Assembly: GCA_000004985.1 (NCBI GenBank)
Contig: GG738897.1
Strand: one strand, 5' to 3'
Origin: Naegleria gruberi
Taxonomy: Eukaryota
DNA: 64,000 bases
This document shows, one piece after another, positions 5,264-63,296 of the stretch. Each line of letters opens with the position of its first letter. The stretch's first letter is position 1. The translations under genes were made by a program, and so were the position numbers. A model generated the notes under the pieces. That model was given only the letters and a program-made list of their open reading frames with translations. It did no database searches and had not been told where the DNA came from.

Positions 5264-7447
5264 TTATTGTAAGAAACAATAACTTTTGGAATTCGTTTCA
5301 TAGCCAATGTTAGGGTTTTCAATTTTGTAAACAATGTCTTTCTTTGAATGAGGGAGAATGAGTTTTGGAGCTGATTTTCCTTGTGATCTAATGTTTAGTT
5401 TTGCAAGTTCAATTTCTTCCTTGATGAATTCTCCACTATCCAAAAACAATAGTATCATACTAGGCATGGATTCTACAAACTGTTTCAATACAAAATTTTC
5501 AAAATGTTCTATTGGTTTCTCAGGTTTTCCTGAAAGATAAATCATTTCCAAGTTTTTGAAATATTGCACTTTTTTAAACGTCTCAATTGTTGGACCACTA
5601 TTTCCCAAGTTAACTTGAATCTTTTTTAACAGTTGTGGGTTAAGTAAGTCCAGTAATTTGATAAAATCATCGTTAGGTATTGTGCAATCTGGTAGTGATA
5701 AAGTGGTTATTTTGCTCAAGTATGGTTGTTGTAACAGGAATGAGCTAGTAATATTCTTTCCATTGAAAGAAAAATCAATACCATATTCTAAAGAAACAGG
5801 ACTGAAAGAGTTGAAAAACTTTACAATAATATCATCAGTGAATTCTGCTCCTGTGACTTTAAACACTGAAAGTGATGAAGCCTTACTAAAAAGTGAGAGA
5901 AGACTATTCTGACCAATTGAGTAAGTATTTTCTAAAATTACAGAATGTAAATAAGGTAAATTTTTCTTAAGAATGTTTGAAAATACTATTGGATACCTTT
6001 CGCTACAAGTACTGATATGAATATATCGTAGTTGTGAGTCTATCTCCTGATTCTCAAATTCTAACATTGAATCGTCTAGTGTTCCTCTCACCTTAACATT
6101 ATCCATCGTAAGGATCTTTAGATTAGGAGAATTATCAATTATATGATTAAGTAAATAGACTGATATTCTGGATTTTTTGATATCCAACTGTTCTATTGAC
6201 GTGTGAATATTTTTAAAATCATATCTCATGTTGTTAGTTTCAACATTAAACAAATGCAAATCTTTCAAAGAGGTACAAGCTGCCAAATTTTCATAAAACC
6301 CATTTAGATTGATCTGTGATCTTGAGATTGTATATTTGGATGTATCAACAATTGGTAAATTAGTAATATCTTGCGAACAGTTGAAGAAACTTTGACATTT
6401 AGGTACATCAATTTTGTTAAGGGCAGTGGTCATATTCATTGAAACAGTTTGAAGAGGATGATTCGGCAAAAAAACTAAATTCATATCTGGACTCATGAGA
6501 TGGTTAGAATATATTTTCAATTTAGGGAATACAGGTCTTGTCTTGTTTTCTGTTAATTGATTGATAACCCTGAAATTATCAAAATTAAATGATGTATCAA
6601 ATCGAAGAATTTCCAAATTACTGTTGCATATTATTTCCATTAACTCATCAGTGATTTCAAAGTCGTCTTCTCTCATAGTTGAATAGGAACGATAATTTTC
6701 GTTGGAAAATCCATTGATGAACAAGTTAAATTCTCGAAGTGATGGGCAGTTTTTCAATATTTCTTTAAATGAATATCCCAACACTGAGGTATAGACACAC
6801 AACGTCAATACCTTCAATCCGCTACAGAGCTGGGTATTGCCAATAATATTTTTAACATCCATAGCATTCTTTGCACATAGTCCATTACAAACAATTAATG
6901 GTTTCTGAATGAGCGTTTGGAAATAATTACCATCCCCAACATCCAATTCTTTACCAAATGATAATCTAGATATTGACTTGAGAGATGAATTAATTTCGTT
7001 TTTAACCCAATTATAATGTTTAGGAGAAACTATCAGCTCTGGGATGTTGAATTTTGAAATGAATTTTGATAGCTTTACAAACTCCTTAGAACCAAGAGTT
7101 GTAAAATTAATTAAATTAATTCTATCCATTTCAACTTCTTGTTCCGTCATCAAGGAATCAATATAATTGCCCAATAAATTTGCAGGATAAATTTCCTTTC
7201 TATCTTCTGAATTACTAGAATACCAATTAGCGCCAGGAGTTCCCTCAATAATAATTTCATCATATCTAAATCCCATCAATAAAATCTGCATGGTAATTGT
7301 TCTCAAATTCTTACTACAACAAATAACATTTACCAACGATCTCGGATCACAATAACTCATTATACAAAATAACATCTCTCTCGGAAGATCATCCAATGAT
7401 TGGCAAAGTAGTGCATCATCCTCTCTATCGTTCTCATTTTGCGCCAT
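5264..7447 (-). CDS. F-box / leucine-rich-repeat (RNI-like) protein
   Basis: 727-aa ORF with ATG at 7447. The N-terminal 'LPREMLFCIMSYCDPRSLVNVICCSKNLR' is an F-box. The body shows LRR-like L/N/I periodicity. Confidence 0.65.
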   Translation of the reverse strand: MAQNENDREDDALLCQSLDDLPREMLFCIMSYCDPRSLVNVICCSKNLRTITMQILLMGFRYDEIIIEGTPGANWYSSNSEDRKEIYPANLLGNYIDSLMTEQEVEMDRINLINFTTLGSKEFVKLSKFISKFNIPELIVSPKHYNWVKNEINSSLKSISRLSFGKELDVGDGNYFQTLIQKPLIVCNGLCAKNAMDVKNIIGNTQLCSGLKVLTLCVYTSVLGYSFKEILKNCPSLREFNLFINGFSNENYRSYSTMREDDFEITDELMEIICNSNLEILRFDTSFNFDNFRVINQLTENKTRPVFPKLKIYSNHLMSPDMNLVFLPNHPLQTVSMNMTTALNKIDVPKCQSFFNCSQDITNLPIVDTSKYTISRSQINLNGFYENLAACTSLKDLHLFNVETNNMRYDFKNIHTSIEQLDIKKSRISVYLLNHIIDNSPNLKILTMDNVKVRGTLDDSMLEFENQEIDSQLRYIHISTCSERYPIVFSNILKKNLPYLHSVILENTYSIGQNSLLSLFSKASSLSVFKVTGAEFTDDIIVKFFNSFSPVSLEYGIDFSFNGKNITSSFLLQQPYLSKITTLSLPDCTIPNDDFIKLLDLLNPQLLKKIQVNLGNSGPTIETFKKVQYFKNLEMIYLSGKPEKPIEHFENFVLKQFVESMPSMILLFLDSGEFIKEEIELAKLNIRSQGKSAPKLILPHSKKDIVYKIENPNIGYETNSKSYCFLQ

Positions 7448-7593
7448 TTTTTTTTGTTTTAATTTTACAAGTTCATTTCAAACGAACACTTGGAAGTAAA
7501 TTGGAAATCTTAAATCAGTGGTAGATGCATTATTAAGGTTTCGTCTATACTGAAATAGATCATTGTGTATTTTTCTAGAGTTTAAAACAAAGT

Positions 7594-9543
7594 TTAATGG
7601 AAATAATTGAAAATGCACTTGATGGATTCCTCTCTTAGCATTCTTCTTAAATTGTATTCCTTACTCAATTCCTCATTTGCATGTTCCTCACTTTCGTCTT
7701 TAGATTCCAATAATTGAAGTGAATCTTTTCCAAAATATTCCAAGTCTTCTTTTCTGTTTAATTCCAACAGTTCTGATTCACTCAAAGTTTGATAATCAAT
7801 TTCATTTTCTTTCCATTCATTTGTTTGAGAAATATTCGAATGTGTATGATTGAAGAATAATGAGCCATGCCCATACCAATTCTTTAAATAGAGTTTCTCT
7901 GAGAGCGTTCGTTCCTCTCCATAAAGTTCTGAATGAACTCTAATGGAAACCTTTAATAATTCATCCTCTAGGGAACCTTCCAATATTTTGCTTTCGTCCA
8001 AAGTTTCAATTTCTGAATCGTCAATAAAATCTTCATCCTTTTTTGCACCATCTTTCTCCTCAGCGATATTAGATTCCTTATTGATAATAATAAATTCATC
8101 ATTCTCCTCATCTGAATTTTCATTTTCTGTATATTCTAATAGGAATTCCATTTCATTATCAGAAACTTCCTCATCGTCCACATCACTAGGGACATCTGAT
8201 TCAGGTCTTGATCTTTTATTCTCAATGACATAATAAAATTTAGAATTATCCAACGCATCCATAATTTCTATATCCGAAACTTTCAATTCTTCATCCTCTT
8301 CCAAGTCTCCTCCAATTTCTGCATTACTTCTTAAAAAATGCTCATAATCCATTGGGTGTTCAGTGTATGGAATAGGAACATCCTTATTGTCTCCATACTT
8401 GTTCTCCACAACTATTTTCAATAAATTTCGAAGATATTCCTGTAAGAGAAAGAGTGCATTTTCAATCATAATTGGTTCAAAATAAATGATTCCTCTTTTT
8501 CTAAATAGATTCTTGATACCATCTCGAATAGAATGATACATAAAAGTGTCATCTAAATGAACGCAAATTTCAAACTTTCGAAATTCACTGCATTGATAAG
8601 TTTCTAATAAAATTGAAGTCTGCTCGTCATTGGAAACTGCCGATTTCTGTACATCATTAATATATGAATCAATTTGTCTTTGATCATTCTTAATTTTATC
8701 ATAGAAAAGTAAGAAATCTTCATCTAATTTCAAATTATGCACTTGTTCATCTGTCAACTTTAAATATTTCTGAACTAGTCCTTTATATTCTTCAGAATAA
8801 ATAGTATCTTGTGAAAGATAGAATTGCTCATCAATTGAACCTTCACAAAGTGGAATACCAAATGGAATTCTCTTGTCAATAATCTCATTTTCATCTTCCA
8901 TTTCAATTGTCTCATCATTTTCTATAATTTCATCTTCTTCTACTGTCGCTTCAACTTCATTCTCTTCATCATCTTCATCTTTGTGAAAATAAATTGGTTT
9001 AACTCCAAAACGAAAATTTCCAGATTTGAATTCTTCTAGATTAGTGGCGTAGGTATCAAAATCTACATGAGATACTTGCTCCCAATCAGTTTCATTTAAA
9101 AATATGGTTGGCTTCCAAGTAGAAAGATCAGTAAATAGATCTGGATGCCTTGTGTGAATAGTTTCGAATTTTCTAATCTTATCAAATATCCCATGCATGT
9201 GTAAATTGGTTTCGTAAATATATTTGGTTGCATCACGAAATATGGAAAGCAGCATGGATGTTAAATCTTTACAGAGGAATAACAATTCGAAACTTTCGTC
9301 CACTTCTAGAAACCTCATAACATGAAACCAACAATCGGAAATTTTAACAAGATCACACGATTTGTTTTTGATATTCGAATGTTGAATAGTTGAGTTGAAA
9401 TCAAATTGTCGTTCAACATTTTCTATTTCTTCATCACAAGATGATTGTGAATCATCCGATTCGTTATCTAAAGTAGCCGAAACAATCAGAAACTTGCTTG
9501 GGCGCAAATATTCACTATTTAGCAGCGGAAGTGTTCTCTTCAT
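7594..9543 (-). CDS. Acidic (D/E-rich) protein with an N-terminal F-box-like motif
   Basis: 649-aa ORF. 'ISDCWFHVMRFLEVDESFELLFLCKDL' resembles an F-box. Long D/E-rich stretches cause spurious antisense ORFs. Confidence 0.4.
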   Translation of the reverse strand: MKRTLPLLNSEYLRPSKFLIVSATLDNESDDSQSSCDEEIENVERQFDFNSTIQHSNIKNKSCDLVKISDCWFHVMRFLEVDESFELLFLCKDLTSMLLSIFRDATKYIYETNLHMHGIFDKIRKFETIHTRHPDLFTDLSTWKPTIFLNETDWEQVSHVDFDTYATNLEEFKSGNFRFGVKPIYFHKDEDDEENEVEATVEEDEIIENDETIEMEDENEIIDKRIPFGIPLCEGSIDEQFYLSQDTIYSEEYKGLVQKYLKLTDEQVHNLKLDEDFLLFYDKIKNDQRQIDSYINDVQKSAVSNDEQTSILLETYQCSEFRKFEICVHLDDTFMYHSIRDGIKNLFRKRGIIYFEPIMIENALFLLQEYLRNLLKIVVENKYGDNKDVPIPYTEHPMDYEHFLRSNAEIGGDLEEDEELKVSDIEIMDALDNSKFYYVIENKRSRPESDVPSDVDDEEVSDNEMEFLLEYTENENSDEENDEFIIINKESNIAEEKDGAKKDEDFIDDSEIETLDESKILEGSLEDELLKVSIRVHSELYGEERTLSEKLYLKNWYGHGSLFFNHTHSNISQTNEWKENEIDYQTLSESELLELNRKEDLEYFGKDSLQLLESKDESEEHANEELSKEYNLRRMLREESIKCIFNYFH

Positions 9544-9890
9544 TTTTTCTGAAAAAGTAATTGTAAATCTTCCCTATTTTACTGGAAAAACTGAGGTAAA
9601 CAGTGTTTCATACTTTTGTAACTGTTGCATCGTGTTCAATATTGTAAATAAATTTTATGATAAATTAAGGTTGGCAGTTTCCGTAGAGCTCCATTGCCAA
9701 AATATCCACTGCCTCTTTCATATTTGCACAAGATAGGCAAATTTAAAGAAGCGTAATTTGTCAATGATGGTTAAGGATTTGAATTGGTGAATTTCCAAAT
9801 TTCTCCTTAATTATTGGAGAGGGTCTCAAGTTTTGACATTTTTTAAATTAAATATTTTAATTGTTTTAATTCAAAATTATTAATTAAAAA

Positions 9891-11210
9891 ATGCAACCAC
9901 TAGATCATACCCTCTCACTCACAGGCTTTGCAATTTTAATTGTATTATTGGTGATTGTGTGGATTTTGGTGAGAAAAAGGGTTCGGAATTATTGCAATAA
10001 TCATCCAAGTAGAAAGGAATTTAAAGTTTATTTGCCATTTTGTAGTGATGAATTGGCATTAATTATTTCATTTCTTGAAAAATCAGACATCGGAAATCTT
10101 TCTCTTGTTTGTAGAGAGGCTAAACAAGCTACTTATTCAAGTACAGTTTGGAATGAGTTATGTGGAACTGTTTCTCTTCGGAGAGTTGAAGGATTGTTGA
10201 ATTTGGAGAGATATGAAGGGAAAATTAAAAATTTGAAATTAATTACTGATCAAGATGAGTATTTTGATGATGATTTTATTTGTAGGATATTCGAAAGATT
10301 GAATGAAAGGTTTCAAATAAGAAAGATGACTATCGAAGTTTCTACATTGGAATTATTCAAGTTTAATTTATTGAATCATTTGGATTGCTTAGAATGTTTG
10401 GAACATTTGAAAATATTGGATAATTCTACAATTTCTATTTTGTTTAATAATTCTTTGATGCCAATTAGATTACCCAAGAAATTGGAATCTATCAAAGTAA
10501 GAGGATTTAGTAGAGTTGCAAATAGAAGTTATGTGTTTGACACTATTTTTATACAAACAGAAAATATCAAAATTGTAAAATTTGAGAACAATCAAGGTTT
10601 TAATGAAATCAAGTTTCAATCACCAAAGGTTGATTTGAAACACTTGACCTCTATTTCACTCTCTTGGACAAGCAATATTTCAACTGAGTATTTCAATAAT
10701 TTAATGGGGAAGTGTAAAAATCTCAAAAAATTGGATCTATCAGGATCTACTTTTGTGGCAAATAATTTGAATATCCCAACCACTATTGAAGTATTGGACA
10801 TTTCCTCCTGCTTGTTTGATGACACAACTCTAACAATGATAGCGTGCCTACCATATTTGAAATTTGTTAACCTTTCATCAACACTCATACCTTTAGATAT
10901 CTTGATACTTTATTGCCAAGTTGGACGATGTGTTATTTGTCAAATTGGAAGTAAGGAAGAGTTGCAAATTCTAAAATCCAACAAACATATTCGTTTATCA
11001 CGCATTTCTCCTCTAGATTTTGATTCCAAAATCAAAGAAATTAAGAAGTCCACCTCAGTAGAATCCAACATTTGTAAAATGTACTATCAACAAGTATTTA
11101 CCGATCCTATTGAGCCTCCAAAGCTAACTCTAAAACCAACAAAACTCTACAAGGCAAAACTAGTCAAATTTTCAGCCTCCAAAGACATTGAAATTGATAA
11201 TGGAAATTAA
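9891..11210 (+). CDS. Membrane-anchored F-box / LRR protein
   Basis: ATG at 9891. N-terminal hydrophobic segment 'FAILIVLLVIVWILV'. F-box 'LPFCSDELALIISFLEKSDIGNLSLVCREAKQ'. LRR-like repeats follow. Codon usage shifts in the 3' third. Confidence 0.6.
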   Translation: MQPLDHTLSLTGFAILIVLLVIVWILVRKRVRNYCNNHPSRKEFKVYLPFCSDELALIISFLEKSDIGNLSLVCREAKQATYSSTVWNELCGTVSLRRVEGLLNLERYEGKIKNLKLITDQDEYFDDDFICRIFERLNERFQIRKMTIEVSTLELFKFNLLNHLDCLECLEHLKILDNSTISILFNNSLMPIRLPKKLESIKVRGFSRVANRSYVFDTIFIQTENIKIVKFENNQGFNEIKFQSPKVDLKHLTSISLSWTSNISTEYFNNLMGKCKNLKKLDLSGSTFVANNLNIPTTIEVLDISSCLFDDTTLTMIACLPYLKFVNLSSTLIPLDILILYCQVGRCVICQIGSKEELQILKSNKHIRLSRISPLDFDSKIKEIKKSTSVESNICKMYYQQVFTDPIEPPKLTLKPTKLYKAKLVKFSASKDIEIDNGN

Positions 11211-11250
11211 GGCAGAAGAGATTTAATTACTTCGGATTGAGGTGGTAAAT

Positions 11251-11370
11251 GGCTACGGCCATATCACGATGAATGCACCTCATCCCGTCCGATTTGAGAA
11301 GTTAAGCATCGTCGAGCCACATCAGTACTGAGGTTGGAGACAACTTGGGAACCTGTGGTGCTGTAGTCTT
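11251..11370 (+). rRNA. 5S ribosomal RNA
   Basis: GGCTACGGCCATATCAC...GAAGTTAAGCATCG...AGTACTGAGGTTGGAGACAAC...GGTGCTGTAGTCT is about 120 nt. 5' and 3' ends form a 9-bp helix I by hand pairing. The RGTTAAGC loop-C box and the GGGA/AGAC elements are present. Confidence 0.9.
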
Positions 11371-11375
11371 TTTAT
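11369..11375 (+). terminator. RNA polymerase III terminator (T-run) for the 5S gene
   Basis: 'tcttttta' lies immediately after the last paired nucleotides of 5S. Confidence 0.6.
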
Positions 11376-11735
11376 TCATATCAATAACAATGAAAACTAA
11401 TAAGTAATTAAGAAGTAAGACTGCCTTTCAAATAATTCCCCGGCCAGAAGAACTCGCGTTTTTTCCAACTCCACCCAATGTACTAATATGGAGAATTTTC
11501 TACGCTTCCAACACCCACAATAGCAGAGAAGAAAATAAGCGAGAGTAGAAGGAATTTCCCAAGTTTCTAGGGACAATTATTCATCAAAACAACAAAAAAA
11601 TCACCTAAGTAATAGGTAAGTGTTGCTGCACGCTTTAGAGAAGATTTATCGGAGTGGTGTTGATATTATTACTTGTTTGCTTGTTTTGGTGTGATGATGT
11701 TTGTTCGGAATGAATGCATACTCTTACTATGCTGA

Positions 11736-13212
11736 ATGATATCAAATCTATGCACACAAATAATAGGAATGGAACGTGTTTTTCCAAAGTTTGCAAATGC
11801 AACCAAGTTGCACAAAACTCTCCTTCTCTCCCTTCCACATAAAGTCACTTCATTAACAAGTTCTTTGGCTGTGTTTTCAAAGCACAATGTTAATTTGATA
11901 AAGATTGAATCACGTCCTAATCGATTTGATAAGAAGGTTATTGATTTTGTTGTCAATGTTGATGAAGGAGTGAGTAAGGATATTGTTGATAGAGCCATCA
12001 AGGAAATGGTTCAAGAAAAGATTTGTGATCATGTACAATATTTGGGATTTGAAAATAAGATTCCTTGGTTCCCAACAAAGATTGCAGATATTGACCATTT
12101 CGCAAGAGAATGTCTTGAAGCTGGTGCTGTTTTGCAAGCTGATCATCCAGGTTTCCATGATCAAGGTAAGGAATTGATTTATTGACATTGTTTCTAATGT
12201 TTATCAAATCAATAGAATACAGAGATCGTAGAAAGATGATCGCAGACATTGCTTTGAATTACAAACATGGAAGTCCAATTCCACGTATTGATTACACTGA
12301 AACTGAAAATAAGACTTGGAGTATTATTTACAAGAAATTGACAGCTCTCTATCCTAAATATGCTTGCGAACAATATAACAACTTGTTCCCATTATTTGAA
12401 CAAAACTGTGGTTTCAAGGAAGATAAAATCCCACAATTACAAGATGTCAGTGACTTTTTGTTGAGCTCAACAGGTTTCAGAATTAGACCTGTCTCTGGTT
12501 TGCTCACTTCAAGAGAGTAAGTTTTCAATTTTGAAATTTTTCATCATTTAACCCAAATAGTTTCCTTAATGCTCTTGCTTTTAGAGTTTTCCACAGTACC
12601 CAATATATTAGACATCACAGTAAGCCATACTATACACCAGAACCTGATGTTGTTCACGAAATGCTTGGTCACATGCCATTATTGGCTGATTCTGATTTTG
12701 CTGAATTCTCTCAACAAATTGGTCTTGCATCTCTCGGAGCTTCCGATGAAGAAATTGACAGACTTGTTAGACTCTACTGGTACTGTCTCGAATTTGGTAT
12801 CCTCAAGGAAAACGGTTCCTTGAAGGCTTATGGTGCTGGTTTGTTAAGCTCGTTTGGTGAACTAGAATATGGTTGTTCAGGCATTGATGCAGAAACTGGA
12901 AAGAAACCAGAATATTTACCATTCGTTCCAGAAGATGCTGCTAATAGAGTTTATCCAATCACTCACTACCAACCAATCTATTATGTTGTTGAAAGCTTGG
13001 AATCATGCAAAGATTTAATTAGAAGATACGTCAACAATTCTCTCGATAGACCATTCCAACTCAAATATAATCCATACACAAGTACTGTAGATGTTTTGGA
13101 TTCTCAAGAAAAATTAATAAGCTTGACAAAAACCATTCAAAACAACATGGATCTGTTAAAGTCTTCCCTTTCAAAGATTGGTCGTTCCTATGAAATTAAC
13201 AATAAAAAATAA
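11736..13212 (+). CDS. PAH: Phenylalanine-4-hydroxylase (aromatic amino-acid hydroxylase). Exons 11736..12165, 12216..12516, 12561..13212
   Basis: The ACT regulatory domain '[15 protein letters not shown]' is followed by '[14 protein letters not shown]...ADHPGFHDQ'. A 50-bp intron (GTAAGG..AATAG) and a 44-bp intron (GTAAGT..AAATAG) restore the PAH sequences '[23 protein letters not shown]' and '[44 protein letters not shown]'. These carry the 2-His Fe-binding motif. '[10 protein letters not shown]' is also present. The start Met is uncertain; an alternative is the ATG at 11769. Confidence 0.9.
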
Positions 13213-15288
13213 AAATTTAGCTATGGAAATTAGTATACTAATTTGAATTAATTAGAGCTTTTGGCAACCAACTATAACTCAGGGTCATACGTGTTAATTT
13301 TGATGTTGTGAATTAGGCAAGCTTAACTTGCCGCCAAAAATCAACGTGTTAAGCTTTGCCGGTTGACTGTGGCCAAAAAAATTTTGGTATTACAACGGTA
13401 TTTAAAAATATTATAAAATATTAAAAAACAAAATGTCCCTACATCCAACATGATGTTGTCTACTTGAACATATTTTTCAATGGATGCTGCTGATGTTGAA
13501 CACATCCTGTCTTCAAGCTATAACATTGTTACATGTACATCTCCCATACAACATCCTAAATGTATTAATGTTGTTGTTGCTCTTGTTATAATAGACTACA
13601 ATATATATTATGAATAATACAACAATAACAGCTATAACAGTACCATAATATATTACATCATCTTTTCAAACAGGCACAACTAATGCTAGGAACATGATGT
13701 GGAGCAAACAACAACAATAGAAGATGTTTCTTGTTGTTCTTGGTTGTGATTTATCCTGTTGTTTGTTGTTCTTCCCGCCAAATATCAGGGAATTACACAT
13801 GTTGAATTCTTGAAACATTCAACGAGGAGGCAATTACATGTCATTTGTATACATATACATGTGCGGATCATATGATGATGGATAACACACATGATAACAT
13901 GCAAATTGTTTACATAACATGTTGTTGATATGTTTTGCACAACTTATTGTGGATGTGTGAAGATTTCAAAATTTGTGGATGTAATCTGACGGTTGGAAAA
14001 TGTGGAATGTTTTCAAGATGGACATTATCTAACGCATTATCATTACCACATTTATTTTTTCTTTGGATGAATAGGAAAATGTTTTTGGAATGTTGTTGAA
14101 TGTGATGAAACTAAACTAATAGTACATTCTATACAACTTTACCATGCATTGAAAACATGCATTTTCTTTTATTCTAATGCACATGCATCAATTCATAGAT
14201 TCAATTTCATTCAACCCAATTAATATCGAATCTACATCATGTACCATTCGATTCTTTCCAAACTTTCGAATAATAGTGTAAATTAAAAGTGCATTCCAAT
14301 ACAACTAGTCAGAATCCAACAAATTAGTTAGTAGCCCATCTATTCGATCTATACTTGCTGTATTAGTATATGCACATTTACAGTAACATTGCAAAACATG
14401 TACATTTGGAGTAATAAGTGGATATAAAGAATTTGTGAATTTCATGGCAAAATAAATTGGAGAAATTCAAAACATAATCACCACAACCAGAAACTGGAAA
14501 ATTCAATTGTATACAGTAACACATTATTATGATTGTTTGCTCAGTCGATATTATTCGAAATCTTTCCAATAATTAAAGAACTTAATGGTTATCCACATAC
14601 ACAACAACAACATGTATTATCGAAACATTCCCAAACACTGACACATTCCAAACAAACACCCATGACCAATAATACTTGTCCACTCAATTCTGAATATTGA
14701 GAATTTCACAACATGAAATTGTCTCTTTTAATCATGTACCAACACTTCATGGTTTTTAAAATTAAAGAAATTGCGAAAAATGTTGAAAAAATCCGCATCA
14801 ACTAAAAAGCCCCTACTTTACCAATTCACTACAATTCATCATGAATCATTACCTTGTTTAGAGTTGACCAAACCTCGTAAAGGAATGAGAACGGAAGAAA
14901 GGTCCACAACGACCAAGAAATTAGTCAAACAGGCAAGACCTCGATCAATACGTGTAGATCCCTCGTTTCGAATAAACAATCTAATAGTTTGTGTTGATTC
15001 ACAGAGTTGACTAAAGTGGCAATTGACTAGAGCAGTGGGTAAAGCTAGTGGTGGTCGCAACAGTTAATAGTTTCATCAGCATTATGTTTATTCCGCCACA
15101 AGAAGAAGTATTTTTCAAAAAAGTGTCTTTACAATAACTATTAAATATATTGCAATTGCTTGGTATTATATTATTTAATATTTCTAAACAAAAAAAACAA
15201 CACTAATCACTGCACATTAGGTAAAGGCAGTAAACAATCGCAATTTTACCATCTAAGTTTCGAATAATTGTCATCATTGGACAATAAG
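13213..15288. promoter_or_regulatory. 2.1-kb ORF-free, AT-rich intergenic block upstream of the AT-hook gene, rich in CATG-core palindromes with a 220-bp G+C-richer island (about 14840..15060)
   Basis: No ORF of at least 60 aa in the correct context. Palindromes include CAACATGATGTTG, TACATGTACAT, GCACATGCATC, ACATGTCA. There are three TGTGGA(A)TGT copies at about 13955..14030. The island carries AGAGTTGAC(C/T)AAA direct repeats. Confidence 0.3.
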
Positions 15289-17081: not shown

Positions 17082-18097
17082 TTATTCAATTTGAACTGAA
17101 TCACCCTTCTTTAAGAGAATGTACTCAATAATTGGAGCTGGCATCCAAGGTCTGAAATATTGAATCAAGAAACGTTCAGTATAAGGTACAATAAATAAAA
17201 AGTCTCCATTCTTTCCTTCTACATTGGTAACCATTCTGGAAACACATTCGTCAACTTCCATGAATTGTGATAAATCTCTTTTAACATTGGAGGCTGACTT
17301 GTTTTCAGTTCCAAGAGCATTGAAGTGAATTTGAGTTTTAACAAAGCCAGGACAAACAATTGAAATAGTGACCTTCTTTCCATAAATTCCCTCCTTCAAT
17401 AATTCCAATTTCAAAGCTTCATAAAATCCATGAAGAGCAAATTTGCTACTAGAATAGGCAGTTCTATAACTTGATGAAATAGTTAGAATGATTAGAATCA
17501 TCATAAAACATACCAAACACCTGATAATCCAGCAAGACTTGAAACAACACAAATAGAGCAATGAGATTCTTGCTTTTCTCTCAAATGTTTCATCAAGTAG
17601 AATGTTGGTGTGACACATCCAAAGAAATTAGTCTCCATCAAGCTTCTATGACCATCTAAATTTGTAGCTTGAGCAAACATTTGCACTGCTGATCTTCCAG
17701 CATTCAAATAAATTACATCAATTCTCTCATTTAAATATTTAGCACTCAACTCGATCAAATTTTTACATTCCTCATCAACGGAAACATCTGTCTTGACACA
17801 GAAAATCTCGTGACCCTTTCCACTATATTCCTTCAACATGATTTCCTTCAATTCTTGCAATTTCTCAACATTTCTAGCAGTTATGACAATTTTATTTCTC
17901 TTTCCGATGGTACAATAGTGTCGCAATAATTGTTCTCCAATGCCAGAGCTTGCTCCGGTGATGATAATATGTCTATTGGAGAGGCACTCTTCAGAATTGA
18001 CTCTCTTTCTCTCCTTCTCAAATTCTAAATATCTAAACACATTCAAGCCAATTACTCCAATTAAAAGCAACAAGACTCCCGCCAAATATTCGATCAT
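17082..18097 (-). CDS. Short-chain dehydrogenase/reductase (11-beta-HSD/DHRS7-like). Exons complement 17514..18097, 17082..17469
   Basis: N-terminal TM segment. Rossmann motif 'ITGASSGIGEQL', 'NAG', and catalytic 'SSLAG...YRTAYSSSK'. A 44-bp intron (GTATGT..CAAG) restores the Ser-to-Tyr spacing of 13 residues. Confidence 0.8.
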
Positions 18098-18673
18098 TTT
18101 TTTTAATAAATTGAAAAAAATGAAAAACCAATCGAACCATAATTTTCATCCGAGTGAGGATGGAGAATTTACCTAGCACATTAAATCTTGTCCGATTTGA
18201 TTGTTAAATTGAATGATGATACAATCATGACGGTCTTCTGAGGAAATAGTGAAGAGGAAACATGTTTAAACCCAATTTATTGGCTGACCAAATAGTGTAT
18301 TATACTAAATATGATTTTATGTATTTTATATTGATTTGGTTGAAAGATAATATTAAAGGATTATTTGAGAAAATTAAATTTGATTTTATAATTAAGTGAA
18401 TTTAATAATAATCAGATATCCAACTTTAATTAAATGTTAATCCGTTTCCATAAATCAATTTTTGATTTCAATTTCTAATATTCACCATTTTCCAATTAAC
18501 TAATTAATTTGACCTTCCATTGAAAATTATCAGGAAATTGTAATGAATTGTGAAAAGAGATCCCTCAACATTTCGATTTGTCAAGGTTCTTCCTATCCTT
18601 GACTAAGAAATATCAAAATTTCCAATTATCCAATACCTTAATGAACCAGCATATGAAAGTTAAATAAGGAGTT

Positions 18674-19171: not shown

Positions 19172-20367
19172 TTAGTGCCTCATTCGTGCAAATAAAGCTG
19201 GTAAATGTGGCAATATTTCATGATAACTAATGTTACCGTCACCATCAACATCACAATCATGCAGCATTTCATCAACTAAATCTGAAATGTCTTCCTCCGA
19301 AATATCTTCATCACCATTCTTTGAGAGAGCTTCCTGCACGTCTTGCATGAAGCTTAATAGTTCATCTCTTTCAATTACACCAGATCCATCTCCATCATAA
19401 TATTCAAATATATAACGAAGTAACCTGGATTGAAGCTTCTTTTGCAGTTTGCTAACCTCTTTGGAATCAAATATTGGTGATGGAGTTTCAAAATCTTCAT
19501 CTGCTAATATCTTCATGAACAGATTGATATCTCGAAGTAAATTACCAGTAGGCCGATAATCAAAGAACCTAAAGAACAAGTCAAATTCCTTTTTCAATTC
19601 TCTTGATGTGAGATTTTCAAGAAATTGTATTTGTTCTGTCGATAAGCTTGGATTAAACACTATATAAGACTCGTCTAACTGGCCACATGAATCAATCATT
19701 TCACCTCTCATTATATTAGAACTCCAAAATAATTCAAAACTCAGTCTGTCAAACTTTTGAGCCTTAATTACATTTTGCAAGCTCTCCACCAGTGTTGTTA
19801 TACTCTCTATAGGAAAAATAGCAACAAGTATTAGTTTTAGTAACAACAATAACAAAACTTACTTTCTGTTACTTTGGTTTGACCACACATGTATAATAAA
19901 TCTCTACAAAACTTTCTCAACTCTGATGAATCTAAAAATCCACTCTTATCCCTATCATATGAATCAAATACTATCTTTGAAAGCTTCATTGATACTTCTT
20001 CCTTTGATTCATTCTGATCAAAATATGTAATGATTGAATTTACATTCTCGAATAAGTTCGTATGAACTGGCAGATCAAAAAACTTTAATATATTCTCAAA
20101 TTGCTTATTCATTTCCGCCATCTTAGTGTTCCTCCTCCTCCTTTTAATATTAAGATAACCTTTCAGTGATTCCTTTGATGTATTGAGAAGGTTTTTCTTG
20201 GCCTTATTTATATTTACATAAGGCGTTGTACTCGATTTTATAGGAGAGACCGTTGTTGAATTGTCGCTAACTTTTGTTGATGATGAGAAGAATGTCCTCA
20301 CTGATGATGAATTCGAAGAGGAGGACACGGAATTTCCACAAGATATAGATGAGCAAATTCCCCCCAT
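19172..20367 (-). CDS. N-myristoylated EF-hand calcium-binding protein (calcineurin-B/NCS-like). Exons complement 19863..20367, 19172..19806
   Basis: 'MGGICSS' is a myristoylation/palmitoylation start. EF-hand loops: 'DRDKSGFLDSSE', 'DGDGSGVIERDE', 'DVDGDGNISYHE'. A 56-bp intron (GTAAGT..CTATAG) joins the two ORFs in frame. Confidence 0.7.
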
Positions 20368-21039
20368 TTTTTATGTTGTGTGTTGGGGCTGGCAACGAAT
20401 AATTGCTTCTTTTTCCCTCAATAAATTTTTAATGGAAATAGAGCACATTTAGGGCTATTTTGTTGGCTCCTTCATTAAGGTGGACCTTATGAAATGTCCA
20501 CAAACAAGCCATACCAGTCCATGGAGGCAATCACTAATTAAGGTAAAATCACCCTTATTAATCGAGATGTATTGTGATATTAATTCCAGTCCATTAAGAT
20601 TTATTATCTTAACGTAGAGGACTTGATAGTCAGTCGATGTGAAAATAAGACAAATGTTTGTTTGTGAATATATTCTTTGGGGATTATGTCTCCTCCATTA
20701 TACAGTTGTTTACTGATTGAAAATGTGTTACCTCTTCCTCAATAGTAGAAACAAAAGCTTCAGACTTTTTCTCACATCGGTTTTGGAATGGAGATAAGGT
20801 TCGAATTGAATATATTTTGGTGCTAAAGTCCATTTTAATTTTCCATATTAATATTACTTTCAATACCAATGTATTATCCACAAGAAAGCTTTGTTTCAAT
20901 CAGTTAATATTATTGACGTTAACCAGCTATCTAATTTTAAAAATTCATCATCATATAAATAGCAAATTGTAAAATATTAGCCAATTTGAAATACAAAAAC
21001 AAATTATTATTAAATAATTTATAAAAATAGATTTAAAAA

Positions 21040-22080
21040 ATGACGACGAATAACCAATCGATGGCAATGTATTCCTCTGCTACTCAGCAACAGGATACAA
21101 ATGGCCAACAACAACAAGATGGTAAAAACGGTGCAAATTATAATACAAACCGATTAAACGCTAGACAACAGATGAATATTGGAGTTTTAAAGAGAAAAGA
21201 TAAATTTATTACGACAATACACTCGACCTTTGATCATGTAGTATTTTACAAGTTTCAAGATGATTCATGGGATAAATTGGAAGTAGAAGGAGCCATGTTT
21301 ATTGTAGAGAGAAACGAACCAAAATTTCCCAAGTATCGTATTGTAGTGATGAATAGAAAGAGTAGTGATGATTTTCGTCAAGATATTACAAAGGATTTAG
21401 AATTGGAAGTCCATCACCCATATGTATTCTATAGAACCAAAGGTCGTATTATCAAGGGAATTTGGTTCTACAAATCTTTGCAATGTATTGAATTTAATGA
21501 CCTCATCGTTTCGTTGAAAGAAAAGGCCTATGGAAAGACGGAACCAGAAAGCAAACAATCAAATACTTTTGTACAACCACCAACTACTTTGCAACCATCT
21601 CCTCTAATTAATTACCATCCAAACCATGCTGATTCAATTTATCATCCATCATCACAATCCCATCAAATTAATCATCATCAAAACGATTCACAACCATCAT
21701 CAGATGCTTCATCTTTACTTAAGAATATGCTAGGAATTGGAGGTGTAACAGGATTACCACCAGTTGAAAATGGTTCCTTTAATCCATCATCTGCAATGGA
21801 CGGAAATAATTATCTAGATGAAGAATCACTTATCAGAGAACACTTTTTCAACTCTAGTGCCAATCAACAAGTTTCTACTGTGGTTGAACCAGAATATTCA
21901 TCTGTGTTATCTCAAGAGTGTGTTCAACAATTCGGAAAGAGGAAGTTTGTCACTAAGGAAATGTTCATCAATCAGCTCATGTTCACACTAGAATCTAACA
22001 AGGACTTTTCCGATGCTTGCTACAATCAATATTGCCAATTTCTAGCTGATGAAAATAAACAATCAGGAAATAGGTGCTAG
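21040..22080 (+). CDS. DCP1: mRNA-decapping enzyme subunit DCP1 (EVH1 domain)
   Basis: 'WDKLEVEGAMFIVERNEPKFPKYRIVVMNRKSSDDFRQDITKDLELEVHHPYVFYRTKGRIIKGIWFY' aligns with the DCP1 EVH1 core (EGTLFV..R..P..F.IVNR....DLE..L..PFLLYR...IYGIWFY). Confidence 0.75.
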   Translation: MTTNNQSMAMYSSATQQQDTNGQQQQDGKNGANYNTNRLNARQQMNIGVLKRKDKFITTIHSTFDHVVFYKFQDDSWDKLEVEGAMFIVERNEPKFPKYRIVVMNRKSSDDFRQDITKDLELEVHHPYVFYRTKGRIIKGIWFYKSLQCIEFNDLIVSLKEKAYGKTEPESKQSNTFVQPPTTLQPSPLINYHPNHADSIYHPSSQSHQINHHQNDSQPSSDASSLLKNMLGIGGVTGLPPVENGSFNPSSAMDGNNYLDEESLIREHFFNSSANQQVSTVVEPEYSSVLSQECVQQFGKRKFVTKEMFINQLMFTLESNKDFSDACYNQYCQFLADENKQSGNRC

Positions 22081-22260
22081 ATATATAGGTAAAATAATTT
22101 ACAATTTCTTCTTCTCCAATAATGATGATTATTATCTTATCCTATTCATCATTATTAATTCAACAACTTCTAACACCAAGATAACCAACAGTTCTCTGCA
22201 AATCTCAAAGTCCTCCTCCATCGAAGTGCGATCCTGATGAAAAAAGGCTTGTGAAAAAAA

Positions 22261-24120
22261 ATGTCATTCAAAACAACAACAGCTTCATCATCATCGTGTT
22301 CATCATCTGATGGTGGTGTGGTATCATCATTGATGAATATGAGTGTTTTTACTTTTGGACAATATGCCATCTATACCGTGATTGGTTATATGGTTATTAA
22401 ATTTATTTATAAATTAATATTTGGAAGAAGTTACATGTGGAAGCAAGTTAAACCATTCGATACTAAGAAACGTCTTTCAACACCACTTCAAGAATGGGTT
22501 GCTACAACAAGAAAGAATCCACAAGGAAGACAAATGATTCCTTGTACTAATCCAGGAACAGGTGAAGAATTATGTGATCCTGTACCAGCAATGAATACTC
22601 AAGATGTTGAAGAAAGAATTTCCTCTGCTAAGAAGGCTTTTGAAGGTTGGTCCAAGACATCATTTGAGGATAGAAAGAGAGTACTCTTGCATTTGTTGGA
22701 CAATATCTTGAAACACAAACATGAAATTGTTGCCAAGAGTTGTAAAGATACTGGTAAGACAATGTTTGAAGCTCATTTGGGTGAAGTTGTCATGACTTGT
22801 GAAAAGATTAGATGGTTAACTACTAGAGGTGAACAATTCCTTTCACCTGAAACTAGACATGTTCCATTAATGATGATTTACAAAGTTGCCACAGTTCAAT
22901 ATTTACCATTGGGTGTTATTGGTATGATTGTTCCATGGAATTATCCTTTCCAAAATGCTATCAATGCTATTATTGCTGCTCTATTTGCTGGTAACTCTGT
23001 TGTTATTAAGGTTAGTGAATGGGCTACTTGGTCAAGTGTTGAATTATATGAACATTTAGTTCAAGATGCTTTAATTAAGGCTGGTTTCTCTCCAGATACT
23101 GTTCAATTCATTGTTGGTTTTGGTGAAGCTGGTAATGCTCTTGCTAAATCAAAGAATACTAGTCACGTTTTCTTTATTGGTTCTCCTGAAATCGGAAAGA
23201 AGGTCATGATGGCTGCCACTGAAAATTTGACACCTGTTACATTGGAATTGGGAGGCAAGGATCCATTCATTGTTTGTGAAGATGCTAACGTTGATATTGC
23301 TGTTGATGTTGCTATTAGAGCTTCTCTTTACAATTGTGGCCAAAATTGTATTGCTGCTGAAAGATTGTACGTTCATGAAAAGATTCATGACAAGTTTGTT
23401 GCTAAGGCAGTTGAACTTATGAAATCACTCAGACAAAGACCAACCTGTACTAAGGATTGTGCTCTTGAACCAGAAGAAATTAACGATATTGGTGCCATGA
23501 CCATGTCAACATCTATTGAAAAGATTGAAAAAGTCATTCAAGATGCTGTTAAGGGAGGTGCTAAGCTCGTTCTTGGTGGTAAGAGAAATCCAAATTTGAA
23601 GGGTCAATTCTTGGAACCAACTCTCCTCACTGAAGTTAAGAATGATATGAATGTTGTTCAAGATGAAGTTTTTGGACCAGTTGTCACTATTGTCAAGTGG
23701 AAGGATGAAGAAGAAGTCATTGGAATGGCTAATAGTACTTGTTATGCTCTTGGTTCATATGTATTTGCTGGTGATCAAAAGCGTGCTGAAAGAATTGGTA
23801 ACCGTCTCGTTGCTGGTTTGACCATGGTTAATGACTATGGTTTGAGCTACTTGATTCAAGATTTGCCATTCGGTGGTGTTAAGGTTTCTGGTTTTGGTAG
23901 ATTCAATGGTCCAGAAGGTCTCCGTGCTTTCACTATCCAAAAGAGTTTCGTTACTAACAGATTCCCAATTGATATGCCTCCACCAAAACTTATTAGATAC
24001 CCAACTGAAGGTTATGCTCATATGGTTGTTGCTCACTTGGTTGACTTCTTATATGGTCCATGGACTGGTACTGTTGGTTCTCTCTTCCGTTTAGTTGGAG
24101 CTTTAATGGGAAAGAAATAA
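22261..24120 (+). CDS. Aldehyde dehydrogenase (membrane-anchored, ALDH22/Msc7-like)
   Basis: 619 aa with an N-terminal TM helix. Motifs 'ELGGKDPFIV' and the catalytic Cys in 'NCGQNCIAAERLYVHE'. 'GSPEIGKKV' is the NAD-binding site. Confidence 0.9.
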   Translation: MSFKTTTASSSSCSSSDGGVVSSLMNMSVFTFGQYAIYTVIGYMVIKFIYKLIFGRSYMWKQVKPFDTKKRLSTPLQEWVATTRKNPQGRQMIPCTNPGTGEELCDPVPAMNTQDVEERISSAKKAFEGWSKTSFEDRKRVLLHLLDNILKHKHEIVAKSCKDTGKTMFEAHLGEVVMTCEKIRWLTTRGEQFLSPETRHVPLMMIYKVATVQYLPLGVIGMIVPWNYPFQNAINAIIAALFAGNSVVIKVSEWATWSSVELYEHLVQDALIKAGFSPDTVQFIVGFGEAGNALAKSKNTSHVFFIGSPEIGKKVMMAATENLTPVTLELGGKDPFIVCEDANVDIAVDVAIRASLYNCGQNCIAAERLYVHEKIHDKFVAKAVELMKSLRQRPTCTKDCALEPEEINDIGAMTMSTSIEKIEKVIQDAVKGGAKLVLGGKRNPNLKGQFLEPTLLTEVKNDMNVVQDEVFGPVVTIVKWKDEEEVIGMANSTCYALGSYVFAGDQKRAERIGNRLVAGLTMVNDYGLSYLIQDLPFGGVKVSGFGRFNGPEGLRAFTIQKSFVTNRFPIDMPPPKLIRYPTEGYAHMVVAHLVDFLYGPWTGTVGSLFRLVGALMGKK

Positions 24121-38061: not shown

Positions 38062-39900
38062 ATGAAAAGAAAGCAAGGCTTTGTGGCTGATGGCGCGAAT
38101 TCGGAGAAGAGAAGAAAACAAACATCATCAAAAAAGGAATTAAATACTGATGGTGATCAAGTTTTGATGAAAACATTATTAAAGGCTAATTTGAATGAGG
38201 ATGTATTGGGAGTTATTTTCGACTTTTTAGATTATTCATTCTTGTCCAGAAAATGTAGATTTGTCTGTTTGCAATGGAATGAAGCCTTTTGCAATATGCC
38301 TGTTCTTTCATCTCATATTTCTGCTCCATTGACAGATTTTTTCGCAAGGAAAGCAAATGAAGGTGAATTGTATATGATTAGAGATTTGAGTTTGGAAGGA
38401 ATCTCAAAAGATTTTGATTTTTCATTGTTATATAATCTTGAAAAGTTGTCTCTTCGATCCCAAGGGCATACTATGGTGCCTGACTCTATTCAATGTTTGC
38501 CTAAATTGAAAAGTCTACAATTGTTCAAATTTATTATAACAGCTACACATATTGAATCTTGGACTAAACTACCTAAATTAGAGGAGCTCTCAGTTAAACA
38601 CAATCCAGAATTCTTTGAATTTTCAGCTTACCATGATTTTTCGAATGTAAAAAAATTGGAATTATGCATCAAGAACGAGGATTATCTTGATTATTCTGTG
38701 ATTATTAATGGAAAGATTTCAAAGAATTTAACTCATTTCACTTTATTACTTTCACATGGTTCTATTTCCATTGTTGAACCATTACCTAAATTAACTTTTT
38801 TGAAATTGTCGTATTGTGACATAAAGAAGGTTGATGCAATTTGTATTCCATTACTTTCAGAGATTACATTCGACGCAGCATTTACAGATGATGACTCTGC
38901 AATTTGTATTTTAAAAGCCCCTTTACTAAAGAAGGCAGCACTGAAATCAGACTATTTGGACGAAAAATGTGCAATGATGAGTTCTACCCATATAGAGGAT
39001 CTGGAATTGGATGATTTGGATAATGACCCAGTATTTAGCATATTCAATCCAAAGTTTAGTGCTTTGAAGAGATTATCTGTTCCAAATTCATTTATTGGGA
39101 ACAGAAATGATTTTTCTATGTTCAAAAACCTTACAGAGTTGAATGTTAATGAAACCAAAATAGGAAATAAGGTTCTATTGGCTATTTCAAAAATGACACA
39201 ATTAACTTCTCTTAATATTGGAAAAAACGATATTACAAAGAATGTTTTCAAACATTTGAAAAAATTAGATAATTTAACAGCTCTTGATTTAGAGGATTGT
39301 GGAGTAAAAGATATCACTCCACTGGCAAAATTAACCAAAATTACAAAGTTGAATTTGAAAAATAACTATTTGAAAGGAGAATGGTTGCAAAAATTAGTAT
39401 CATATTTACCAAATTTAAGGAAGCTGAATTCGGAAGGAAACGAGCTGACTTCTTTGGCTCCATTATCACTATTAACAAATATTCAAAAATTGAAGTTGAA
39501 AAGTCTTAAGTTTAGTGATATCAAAGAAATGCAGCTACAACATCTCTTGAAATTAGAATATTTGGATAAACTTTCAATCACATCAATGGATATTGGAGAG
39601 GAAGGAGCTAAGATATTAGGTAGAGGAAGATTTAAACATCTCAAACTTAATATTTGTGAGCTACACGATAGAGCATTACCATTCATCCTAACAAATACCT
39701 CCCTCAGAACTCTTGATCTTCAGAAAAATAATCTTACCGAAAAAGGAGTTAATATAATTTCAAAATCATATTTGCCATTCATGCAAAAAGTTAACGTTTC
39801 TGAAAACAAATACTATGCATCAATTGAGGAAGATGATTCAAAATTCCAAATTGTAAACAAGAATGCAAGACCATTACCATTTAGAGTTATCTTTTTTTAA
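38062..39900 (+). CDS. F-box / leucine-rich-repeat protein
   Basis: The ATG is at 38062; the track start at 38041 is TTG. F-box 'LGVIFDFLDYSFLSRKCRFVCLQWNEAF'. Many LxxLxLxxN LRRs run through the C-terminal half. Confidence 0.65.
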   Translation: MKRKQGFVADGANSEKRRKQTSSKKELNTDGDQVLMKTLLKANLNEDVLGVIFDFLDYSFLSRKCRFVCLQWNEAFCNMPVLSSHISAPLTDFFARKANEGELYMIRDLSLEGISKDFDFSLLYNLEKLSLRSQGHTMVPDSIQCLPKLKSLQLFKFIITATHIESWTKLPKLEELSVKHNPEFFEFSAYHDFSNVKKLELCIKNEDYLDYSVIINGKISKNLTHFTLLLSHGSISIVEPLPKLTFLKLSYCDIKKVDAICIPLLSEITFDAAFTDDDSAICILKAPLLKKAALKSDYLDEKCAMMSSTHIEDLELDDLDNDPVFSIFNPKFSALKRLSVPNSFIGNRNDFSMFKNLTELNVNETKIGNKVLLAISKMTQLTSLNIGKNDITKNVFKHLKKLDNLTALDLEDCGVKDITPLAKLTKITKLNLKNNYLKGEWLQKLVSYLPNLRKLNSEGNELTSLAPLSLLTNIQKLKLKSLKFSDIKEMQLQHLLKLEYLDKLSITSMDIGEEGAKILGRGRFKHLKLNICELHDRALPFILTNTSLRTLDLQKNNLTEKGVNIISKSYLPFMQKVNVSENKYYASIEEDDSKFQIVNKNARPLPFRVIFF

Positions 39901-59327: not shown

Positions 59328-60554
59328 TTATTTAACAATATTAAATTTTGAAATTTTCTTAGCTAGATATGTTGATAAAAAGTTTAATCCCTTCACTGTA
59401 ATGATTATCTCAATTTCGAATTTTCTTAATTTCATACTTTGCAATTCATCTCTGACATGATCTAGTTCTTTTCTTTTGATGGAATCCTTGATATGACGAT
59501 CAATAAGATTAATTTCTCTTTGAGATATTGGCTGATTGTAATAATGTGGAATGTCCTTAACATCTTCGTAATTCATTCCAAGCCATTGAAGTCTATCTTT
59601 GAGTGCTGACTCTTGTTGAACTTTGTGTCTACTCATTTCAACACTTCCATACTTGTATGTACTCATAATTTGATATCCAAAAATATTGAAATCACATAAA
59701 GCATATAATCTAGCATTTGGAAATCTAGTAGAAACATGTTTCACAACATAACGAGTCACAATCGATGGATATCCACATCCAGTAATCAACAAACAATTCC
59801 TAACAAGTTTGAAAATCTTATCTTCCACAAGTCTTCTAAATATTGCATCTTTCTCAATAATTAACACAGTGTCCACATTTCCAAAATAATCAATTGAGGG
59901 AAAATCTCCTGGAATGCTTTCCACTGAGGCCTGTTTGTTTCCATTAAGCGATAACAAGCTATTTCCTCTTCCATCATTGCTGTAAATAAATCCCTTACTC
60001 ATGCAAATGATATTCAATAAGGATCTGTCAACCTTCAACACATCACCAACAGTTGACAAACATCTATTACATTGAATTTGATCCCTGAATGTAGTAACAT
60101 TCATATAAAACAATTCTCTCTGAGTAATCTTCTTCCTACAATTCAACAGTAAATGAACATCCTTCATCAACAGCCAAACAAGATGATTCTTCTTAAGATG
60201 ATTATTTTTCAAACTCTTCTTCTCAAATGTTCCACTTTTTGATTTAATTATTTGATGAAGCCTTTCTCCATTAGACTGATTCGAATCCCTTGTTCCGAAT
60301 GAATAATTTAAAATCAAATCTTGTCCATTCTTTTCATCATTCTCAATCAATTTAAATAGAAACTCCAAAACATATGATTCAATCAATGATATAATCTCCT
60401 CATTCGGTAGTAAATAGTGAATCTCACACATCTTTTCAATATCAAACAAGTTTAATTCATCTTCCATATCATCTTCATTCTCCTCCAAAACAAGCCTTGT
60501 TGCATTTTCAGACAAGCCTTGTTCCTCATCCTCAGCATCGTTCTCATGATTCAT
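59328..60554 (-). CDS. SPO11: SPO11 / topoisomerase VI subunit A homologue (meiotic DSB transesterase)
   Basis: 5Y-CAP motif 'TQRELFYMNVTTFRDQ' carries the catalytic Tyr (compare yeast 'TVRDIFYSNVELFQRQ'). Toprim 'VLIIEKDAIFRRL' supplies the Glu, and 'ITGCGYPSIVTRYVV' is present. The Toprim acidic motif reads 'CDFNIFG', D-x-N instead of D-x-D-P. Confidence 0.8.
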   Translation of the reverse strand: MNHENDAEDEEQGLSENATRLVLEENEDDMEDELNLFDIEKMCEIHYLLPNEEIISLIESYVLEFLFKLIENDEKNGQDLILNYSFGTRDSNQSNGERLHQIIKSKSGTFEKKSLKNNHLKKNHLVWLLMKDVHLLLNCRKKITQRELFYMNVTTFRDQIQCNRCLSTVGDVLKVDRSLLNIICMSKGFIYSNDGRGNSLLSLNGNKQASVESIPGDFPSIDYFGNVDTVLIIEKDAIFRRLVEDKIFKLVRNCLLITGCGYPSIVTRYVVKHVSTRFPNARLYALCDFNIFGYQIMSTYKYGSVEMSRHKVQQESALKDRLQWLGMNYEDVKDIPHYYNQPISQREINLIDRHIKDSIKRKELDHVRDELQSMKLRKFEIEIIITVKGLNFLSTYLAKKISKFNIVK

Positions 60555-63194: not shown

Positions 63195-63296
63195 TTTTGT
63201 TGTTGGCTGCAATTTTTAGATTTCTAGCCGTTACATTTAATTTCATCATCAAATAAAACAAGTAAAAAATTACCTTGATTTTTGTACATACAAAAG

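Follow-up and report, generated by a model that had tools for sequence, protein, structure and literature searches.

Do three adjacent F-box genes that end at a solitary 5S rRNA gene record the local expansion of a gene family, a functional arrangement, or neither? The question is raised by a 64-kb stretch of Naegleria gruberi nuclear DNA (hereafter, the window), in which genes 1, 2, and 3 and the 5S gene follow one another within positions 5264..11370 and a further F-box gene, gene 4, lies 27 kb away. The best explanation, to which we assign a probability of roughly 0.7, is that the four genes are members of a large, old superfamily that stand near one another by chance or through very old history, and that the 5S gene is one of ~280 scattered RNA polymerase III (Pol III) units. 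The arrangement is real but ordinary, and it is already on record. As stated, it matters little, because the genes are annotated, the dispersal of 5S genes has been tabulated (PMC3369914), and a 2014 paper had already pointed to diversified F-box genes in N. gruberi (PMC4327156 supplement). The lone unexpected point is a histone-H4-like domain that gene 2 very probably encodes.

Four F-box genes in the window

The open reading frames (ORFs) of genes 1, 2, and 3 are uninterrupted, and each product is 100% identical over its full length to an annotated N. gruberi protein; all three genes lie on a single 326,913-bp contig. Gene 1 (5264..7447, minus strand; NAEGRDRAFT_52226, 727 aa) encodes an N-terminal F-box at residues 18–55 followed by irregular leucine-rich repeats (LRRs). 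Its F-box reached 28.5 bits against the Pfam cut-off of 20.5 for PF00646 and 24.3 against 24.3 for PF12937, and thus qualifies as an F-box by the Pfam thresholds. The repeats gave a weak Pfam match to LRR_At5g56370, and the LRR core motif occurred seven times, compared with 2.7 ± 1.6 times in shuffled sequences, at a spacing of 21–25 residues.

Gene 3 (9891..11210, plus strand; NAEGRDRAFT_72470, 439 aa) is divergent from gene 2, with 347 bp between them. Its F-box-like motif at residues 52–91 (10044..10163) scored just below the Pfam cut-offs (F-box-like, 23.8 vs 24.3; F-box, 19.8 vs 20.5; E 4e-5), and the UniRef name of the protein is F-box domain-containing protein. The LRR motif occurred four times, compared with 1.8 ± 1.3 in shuffles. 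An N-terminal hydrophobic helix (residues ~10–27, LSLTGFAILIVLLVIVWILV) precedes the F-box (window 9891..9990, residues ~7–37), and in a single-sequence AlphaFold model (mean predicted local distance difference test [pLDDT] score, 42) the sole confident segment was the helix 7–37. The hydrophobic stretch and the model suggest that gene 3 may encode a membrane-anchored F-box protein.

Gene 4 (38062..39900, plus strand; 612 aa) combines a weak F-box at residues ~43–81 (Pfam E 0.033, 14.6 bits) with regular LRRs of the internalin/Roco type (LRR_4, 9.8e-14; PDB matches to internalin A and a Roco LRR, 5e-20). LRR strength is therefore graded across the four genes: strong in gene 4, moderate in gene 1, weak in gene 3, and absent in gene 2. 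A sequence search of PDB gave no match for genes 1 or 2 and only marginal LRR matches for gene 3.

Gene 2 (7594..9543, minus strand; 649 aa), annotated as 'predicted protein', has a degenerate F-box, a predicted H4-like fold, acidic tracts, and a C-terminal block. With 24% D+E and no LRRs, it is the acidic variant of the original prediction, which had also assigned LRRs to two members of the trio. The family alignment and the custom profile described below place its F-box-like motif at residues ~67–105 (ISDCWFHVMRFLEVDESFELLFLCKDL...; 9229..9345, minus strand). Gene 2 itself had no Pfam match at E ≤ 1 and stays below the F-box cut-off. The motif aligns with the clear F-boxes of family members, six of 16 of which match the Pfam F-box (best E 1.3e-11); the family profile matches the KDM2A/B F-box in PDB (E 4e-4), and the AlphaFold2 model has three helices at residues 69–111 (pLDDT 68–79). 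Judged by its alignment to the family, the motif is a degenerate F-box in which the LP and W positions have been lost.

When 1.84 billion representative sequences were scanned in full with HMMER, 20 gene 2 homologues were recovered at 30–35% identity, from N. fowleri, N. lovaniensis, Willaertia magna (three), metagenomes, and N. gruberi itself (two paralogues on other scaffolds). The family is thus conserved across Naegleria and Willaertia, with three N. gruberi members including gene 2. It shares a C-terminal block, DFIDDSEL...LLKVSIRVHEEVYGKERTH.EKLYLKNWYG, which is without a match in Pfam. The AlphaFold model of gene 2, built with 16 sequences, is usable only locally (mean pLDDT 49.5), and its locally confident helices are those of the F-box, the H4-like segment, and the conserved C-terminal block. 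A word-index search of 5.8 billion proteins recovered only the query for each of genes 1, 2, and 3; it missed the real gene 2 homologues, and we therefore do not claim genes 1 and 3 as orphans.

As a side point on this family, in W. magna locus L125 (JBEGDK010000066.1, 9373..11701) the exon that encodes the F-box of homologue P0010 falls in a 147-aa gene just upstream that was called on its own (9454..9897); the deposited gene model is probably split.

An F-box hidden Markov model (HMM) was built from 11 heterolobosean gene 2 homologues, with all four window genes excluded, and the full set of 203 six-frame ORF segments in the window was searched with it. The four genes took the first four ranks (gene 4, E 2.4e-5; gene 2, 8.7e-5; gene 3, 1.1e-4; gene 1, 0.016), the fifth-ranked segment had an E of 0.065, and no F-box was found in further ORFs among these segments. 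The predicted list of four genes with an N-terminal F-box, including an F-box/LRR gene 27 kb from the others, is complete and correct for the window: the F-box is supported by Pfam in gene 1 and, just below the cut-offs, in gene 3, by the custom HMM in gene 4, and through homologues alone in gene 2. From what is known of F-box families, the four proteins would be substrate receptors of Skp1-Cul1-F-box (SCF) ligases that dock on Skp1. They would recognize their targets through different C-terminal modules, namely LRRs in genes 1, 3, and 4 and, in gene 2, the H4-like fold together with acidic tracts. A circumstantial hint at Skp1 docking is the Skp1 gene that adjoins the N. fowleri homologue of gene 2.

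Relationships among the F-box genes

All-pairs BLASTP among the four proteins gave nothing below E 0.2. Identity over the F-box core (~36 residues) was 14–32%, which is not above the identity of these F-boxes to those of other loci and species, and the similarity is confined to the ~40-residue F-box motif, with none outside it. Local tandem duplicates are expected to be each other's closest relatives, and the neighbors here are not. Three architectures are represented: F-box with LRRs; F-box with an H4-like fold and acidic tracts; and a transmembrane helix with an F-box and weak LRRs. The claim that the F-boxes are not close copies is borne out by these values. The further claim of an old family expansion rather than a recent tandem duplication holds in part: the genes are not recent duplicates, and an old superfamily fits the reported diversification (PMC4327156), but there is no sign that they originated locally from one another. 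No F-box census of N. gruberi was found in the literature.

Homologous loci and an ancient local duplication

An alternative that we consider unlikely is that an F-box gene underwent local tandem duplication in the distant past and that the trio is what remains, birth-and-death evolution and domain replacement having since erased all similarity but the F-box. Plant and nematode F-box arrays evolve by birth and death and by domain replacement. The contiguity of three F-box genes with a fourth 27 kb away speaks for such an origin, and old copies are compatible with an F-box identity of 14–32%. With random placement, three-in-a-row runs are expected 0.03 times in a genome that has 200 F-box genes and 0.5 times in one that has 500; three adjacent F-box genes are expected less than 0.1 times per genome unless there are more than ~300, so that a chance run would be rare in a family below about that size.

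Similar small groups occur elsewhere. In W. magna locus L123 (JBEGDK010000152.1), three F-box genes lie in 13 kb (8478..9773, minus strand; 10001..12196, plus strand; 20334..21728, minus strand), all above the Pfam cut-offs, and a gene for a UBR4-like giant E3 adjoins. The gene 2 homologue of this locus and a 431-aa F-box gene form a divergent pair, which mirrors the layout of gene 2 and the 439-aa gene 3. On the metagenome contig L126, a second F-box gene lies 3.4 kb from the gene 2 homologue. In the N. fowleri locus L121 (VFQX01000001.1), the gene 2 homologue (10001..12437) is directly followed on its downstream side by a Skp1 gene (12714..13479, minus strand), and an uncalled F-box-like ORF fragment lies upstream (7488..7772, minus strand; RDVLFEIFSFSLAPSVLFKYSLVCKSWNDQF). 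Together with the rarity of a chance run of three and a 5S gene that again stands beside an F-box gene in L123 (see below), these groups weigh against the explanation that we prefer, and F-box genes may truly cluster to some degree in heteroloboseans. Because every one of the homologous loci was reached by way of an F-box gene, they form a biased sample that cannot measure clustering. The N. lovaniensis locus (L122) and L125 had no further credible F-box gene, with only weak HMM matches (E 0.002–0.007) in L125. F-box genes cluster in plants and nematodes.

Orthology of gene 3 to the 431-aa divergent F-box gene of L123 was considered and rejected; the F-box alone aligns, at E 0.08.

Against an ancient local duplication stand the complete lack of similarity outside the F-box, the neighboring F-boxes that are not mutually closest, the differing architectures, and the age of the gene 2 family, which pre-dates the Naegleria-Willaertia split. 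A further W. magna locus, L124 (JBEGDK010000140.1, homologue P0006), also argues against it. This locus is syntenic with the window, sharing GH15 (74–80% aa identity), Aldedh (75%), DCP1 (70%), and EF-hand (56–60%) genes and one more ORF, in a rearranged microsynteny that involves window parts 19172..24120, 45012..47146, and 63279..63998. In W. magna the gene 2 homologue is flanked by GH15 and Aldedh; in N. gruberi gene 2 is on the opposite side, 13 kb away. At L124 we found no homologue of gene 1, of gene 3, or of the phenylalanine/aromatic amino-acid hydroxylase (PAH) gene that follows the 5S gene in the window, no further F-box match, and no 5S gene. Since L124 keeps the gene 2 homologue without its window neighbors, gene 2 looks like an old resident of the block whose present neighbors are not conserved, and the adjacency of F-box genes is not ancestral there. 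The gene 2 loci of N. fowleri and N. lovaniensis are not syntenic with the window and had no gene 1 or gene 3 homologue. We prefer to regard the four genes as members of an old superfamily whose adjacency reflects chance or very old history in a genome rich in F-box genes.

The solitary 5S rRNA gene

With Rfam, the 5S rRNA gene (11251..11369, plus strand; RF00001) scored 105.4 bits against a gathering score of 38, at full length (model positions 1–120) and with zero non-canonical pairs flagged. It is the single Rfam non-coding RNA in the 64 kb, and no other rRNA was found there. The stop codon of gene 3 ends at 11210, leaving a 40-nt spacer, so that the 5S gene starts 41 bp past the stop, as originally described; PAH comes next, with exons from 11736. 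Within the spacer is an AT-rich, TATA-like element, ATTTAATTA (11221..11229, plus strand), at −30..−22 of the 5S gene. Box A (11300..11314, plus strand; 5S positions 50–64) matches the consensus exactly, and a box C-like element (11330..11347, plus strand; 5S positions 80–97) has two mismatches to a consensus that is vertebrate-derived. A T-run, TTTTT (11369..11373, plus strand), read directly at the 3' end of the gene, would serve as the Pol III terminator.

Boxes A and C at canonical positions and the T-run have the layout predicted for a type-1 Pol III unit. N. gruberi 5S genes reportedly have a TATA box, and TFIIIB and TFIIIC but no recognizable TFIIIA homologue are reported for the species (PMC3369914). 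The gene is structurally intact and has internal control elements, an AT-rich box upstream, and a terminator; on these grounds it is probably a functional Pol III unit, and it would be self-contained, with internal box A and box C, the AT-rich box near −30, and its own T-run. The description of a dispersed, individually terminated unit outside any array fits: the gene has its own T-run, is the single copy in the window, and stands without 18S or 28S genes. A tandem 5S organization with this copy as a pseudogene carrying box A and box C mismatches had been named as the outcome that would overturn that description; box A is exact, box C has the two mismatches given above, and the gene is intact.

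Such an arrangement is the rule, not the exception, in this genome. In the JGI assembly of N. gruberi, 279 putative 5S genes were listed in 2012 (PMC3369914 Table S1). We parsed this table and found that 117 scaffolds have at least one copy, that the median gap between successive copies is 34 kb, that one gap is below 1 kb and nine are below 2 kb, and that 200 of the 279 copies have no listed neighbor within 10 kb. With 279 copies per ~41 Mb, the probability of one copy or more in a 64-kb window is ~0.35. Table 1 of the same paper ticks 'tandem arrangement' for the N. gruberi 5S genes (PMC3369914). The published summary therefore needs correction, because it says 'tandem' and the paper's own coordinates describe ~280 mostly solitary copies. 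Scattered single copies are the normal 5S organization of N. gruberi, and they have already been tabulated.

Copies from relatives have the same solitary character. In metagenomes, an exact 29-mer of the window 5S gene had no match, and a degenerate 5S pattern found 120 loci, of which only one was Naegleria-like. This locus, a 1,964-bp contig (L098), has a solitary 5S gene that is identical to that of the window at 118 of 119 positions and adjoins an unrelated gene, hydrolase-like by eye only. In W. magna L123, the 5S gene (21919..22037, plus strand), again solitary, stands 190 bp upstream of the third F-box gene of that locus, and L126 has one solitary 5S gene amid unrelated genes. We aligned the window, L098, and L123 loci. 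The 5S identity ends at the gene boundaries, and only an AT-rich box near −30 and a T-run are common to the three outside the gene. In the W. magna copy, both strands of helix III and both strands of helix V are altered, as read from the alignment and not pair by pair. Since identity ends at the gene boundaries, the repeated unit is the gene itself and not a larger element.

The 5S promoter box is less than 40 nt from the stop codon of gene 3, and the 3' end of the gene 3 mRNA must therefore form within or across the 5S unit. This overlap is a consequence of genome compaction and not evidence of coupling. It could be taken to favor a functional arrangement, in which the 5S gene is a boundary or terminator for the adjoining F-box gene or the region is a co-regulated ubiquitin-system neighborhood, as could the W. 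magna 5S gene upstream of an F-box gene and the ubiquitin-system genes near gene 2 homologues: Skp1 and, upstream, a gene (575 aa) that weakly matches OTU deubiquitinase in L121, UBR4 in L123, and a U-box gene in L124. We judge such an arrangement most improbable, given that the near-identical 5S gene of L098 adjoins an unrelated gene, that L122 and L125 show nothing of the kind, that spacers of 0.1–0.5 kb in this genome force every 5S copy to abut RNA polymerase II (Pol II) genes, and that a 5S gene lies within ±10 kb of a gene 2 family member at three of seven loci of a biased sample, against ~1 expected (P ~0.08, Poisson, 279-copy density). The adjacency of 5S and F-box genes is probably a coincidence, and a functional link is probably absent.

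In Naegleria, 5S genes are not the only small RNA genes dispersed among protein genes. The N. fowleri locus L121 has a U4 snRNA gene among protein genes (20320..20459), and in N. lovaniensis L122 two tRNA genes with identical scores lie 320 bp apart in inverted orientation (17947..18412).

A predicted histone-H4-like fold in gene 2

The H4-like fold of gene 2 spans residues ~338–433 (8245..8532, minus strand) and consists of α1, L1, α2, an insertion of ~40 residues, and α3. It is supported by hhalign, in which the gene 2 family matched human H4 in all variants of the comparison (probability 85–95%, E 6e-6 to 3e-8). The whole family alignment gave a probability of 85%; residues 330–445 gave 93% (E 2.5e-7); and with the α2-α3 insertion cut out, the match rose to 95% (E 3e-8) and spanned H4 residues 29–99. 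The controls H3, H2A, H2B, and shuffled H4 all gave E ≥ 0.065, and the match is thus specific to H4. A search of PDB with the family profile (hmmsearch) had only H4 chains as its best matches (E 1e-4), and the segment aligns to H4 α1–α3 including the RL.RR.GVK signature.

Structural support is weak. The local pLDDT of the segment is 60–78, and the best six PDB matches of Foldseek were all H4 chains at template-modelling scores of 0.66–0.74 (target-normalised) but with non-significant E values (>4). Taken together, we consider the presence of an H4-like fold in gene 2 highly probable. No description of an F-box fused to an H4-like fold was found in the literature, and the predicted F-box and H4-like architecture of the gene 2 family, for which the profile evidence is consistent, is the one new item of this analysis.

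What such a protein would do can be proposed only tentatively. The gene 2 family may comprise SCF adaptors whose H4-like fold, flanked by chaperone-like acidic tracts, pairs with H3 or CenH3 and delivers it to Skp1-Cul1 for ubiquitylation, which we regard as possible but doubtful. If true, the family would provide a substrate-mimicry route to histone turnover, unlike the WD40 and LRR F-box proteins that target CENP-A. If confirmed, the combination of F-box and H4-like fold would be a new adaptor architecture by which a deep-branching eukaryote connects histone handling with SCF ligases.

Other features of the window

The window is gene-dense, with mostly intron-less ORFs and 30–36% G+C, and it is an ordinary segment of an N. 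gruberi chromosome. The PAH gene (11736..13212, plus strand) has several exons; Pfam Biopterin_H was found on the ORFs 11736..12185, 12182..12520, and 12661..13212 (E 9e-8, 6e-46, and 1e-63, respectively), together with a weak ACT match. The remaining genes are unrelated to the F-box genes and of housekeeping type: besides PAH, they encode a PPPDE peptidase, an RCC1-like protein, a hydrolase, a short-chain dehydrogenase, an EF-hand protein, DCP1, aldehyde dehydrogenase, PGK, an actin-like protein, GH15, a TAF5-like protein, BRCT and RUN proteins, Spo11, Hikeshi, and Vma22. A tRNA scan of the 64-kb window found none.

The Spo11/Top6A homologue (59328..60554, minus strand; TP6A_N and Toprim) is a meiosis-associated gene in an organism without an observed sexual cycle. 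The presence of Spo11 in N. gruberi was reportedly described in the genome paper.

Comparison with known systems

Dispersed 5S genes are found in Schizosaccharomyces pombe, Neurospora crassa, and Acanthamoeba castellanii. The window 5S gene is like these in being a ~120-bp Pol III unit whose control region is internal and which has an upstream AT-rich element and a T-run, and like the dispersed 5S genes of other compact eukaryotes it is scattered among Pol II genes and unlinked to 18S-5.8S-28S. Nothing essential differs from these systems, and the window copy is unusually near (40 nt) a coding region.

Genes 1, 3, and 4 resemble F-box proteins of the FBXL type, such as Skp2, and the plant FBD/LRR F-box proteins in having an N-terminal F-box followed by LRRs. 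They differ from the FBXL type in that gene 3 adds an N-terminal hydrophobic helix and in that the repeats of gene 4 are of the internalin/Roco type and not the cysteine-containing FBXL type.

F-box proteins that act on H3-type histones are the nearest known counterparts of the gene 2 family. In Drosophila, the F-box protein Ppa targets CID. In yeast, SCF-Met30/Cdc4 acts on Cse4 (PMC7032732). The gene 2 family shares the F-box with such proteins and adds the H4-like segment; the known proteins use WD40 or LRR domains, whereas the gene 2 family would use a predicted histone fold. Compared with histone H4 itself, this fold has an insertion of ~40 residues before α3 and is embedded in an acidic protein of 550–800 aa.

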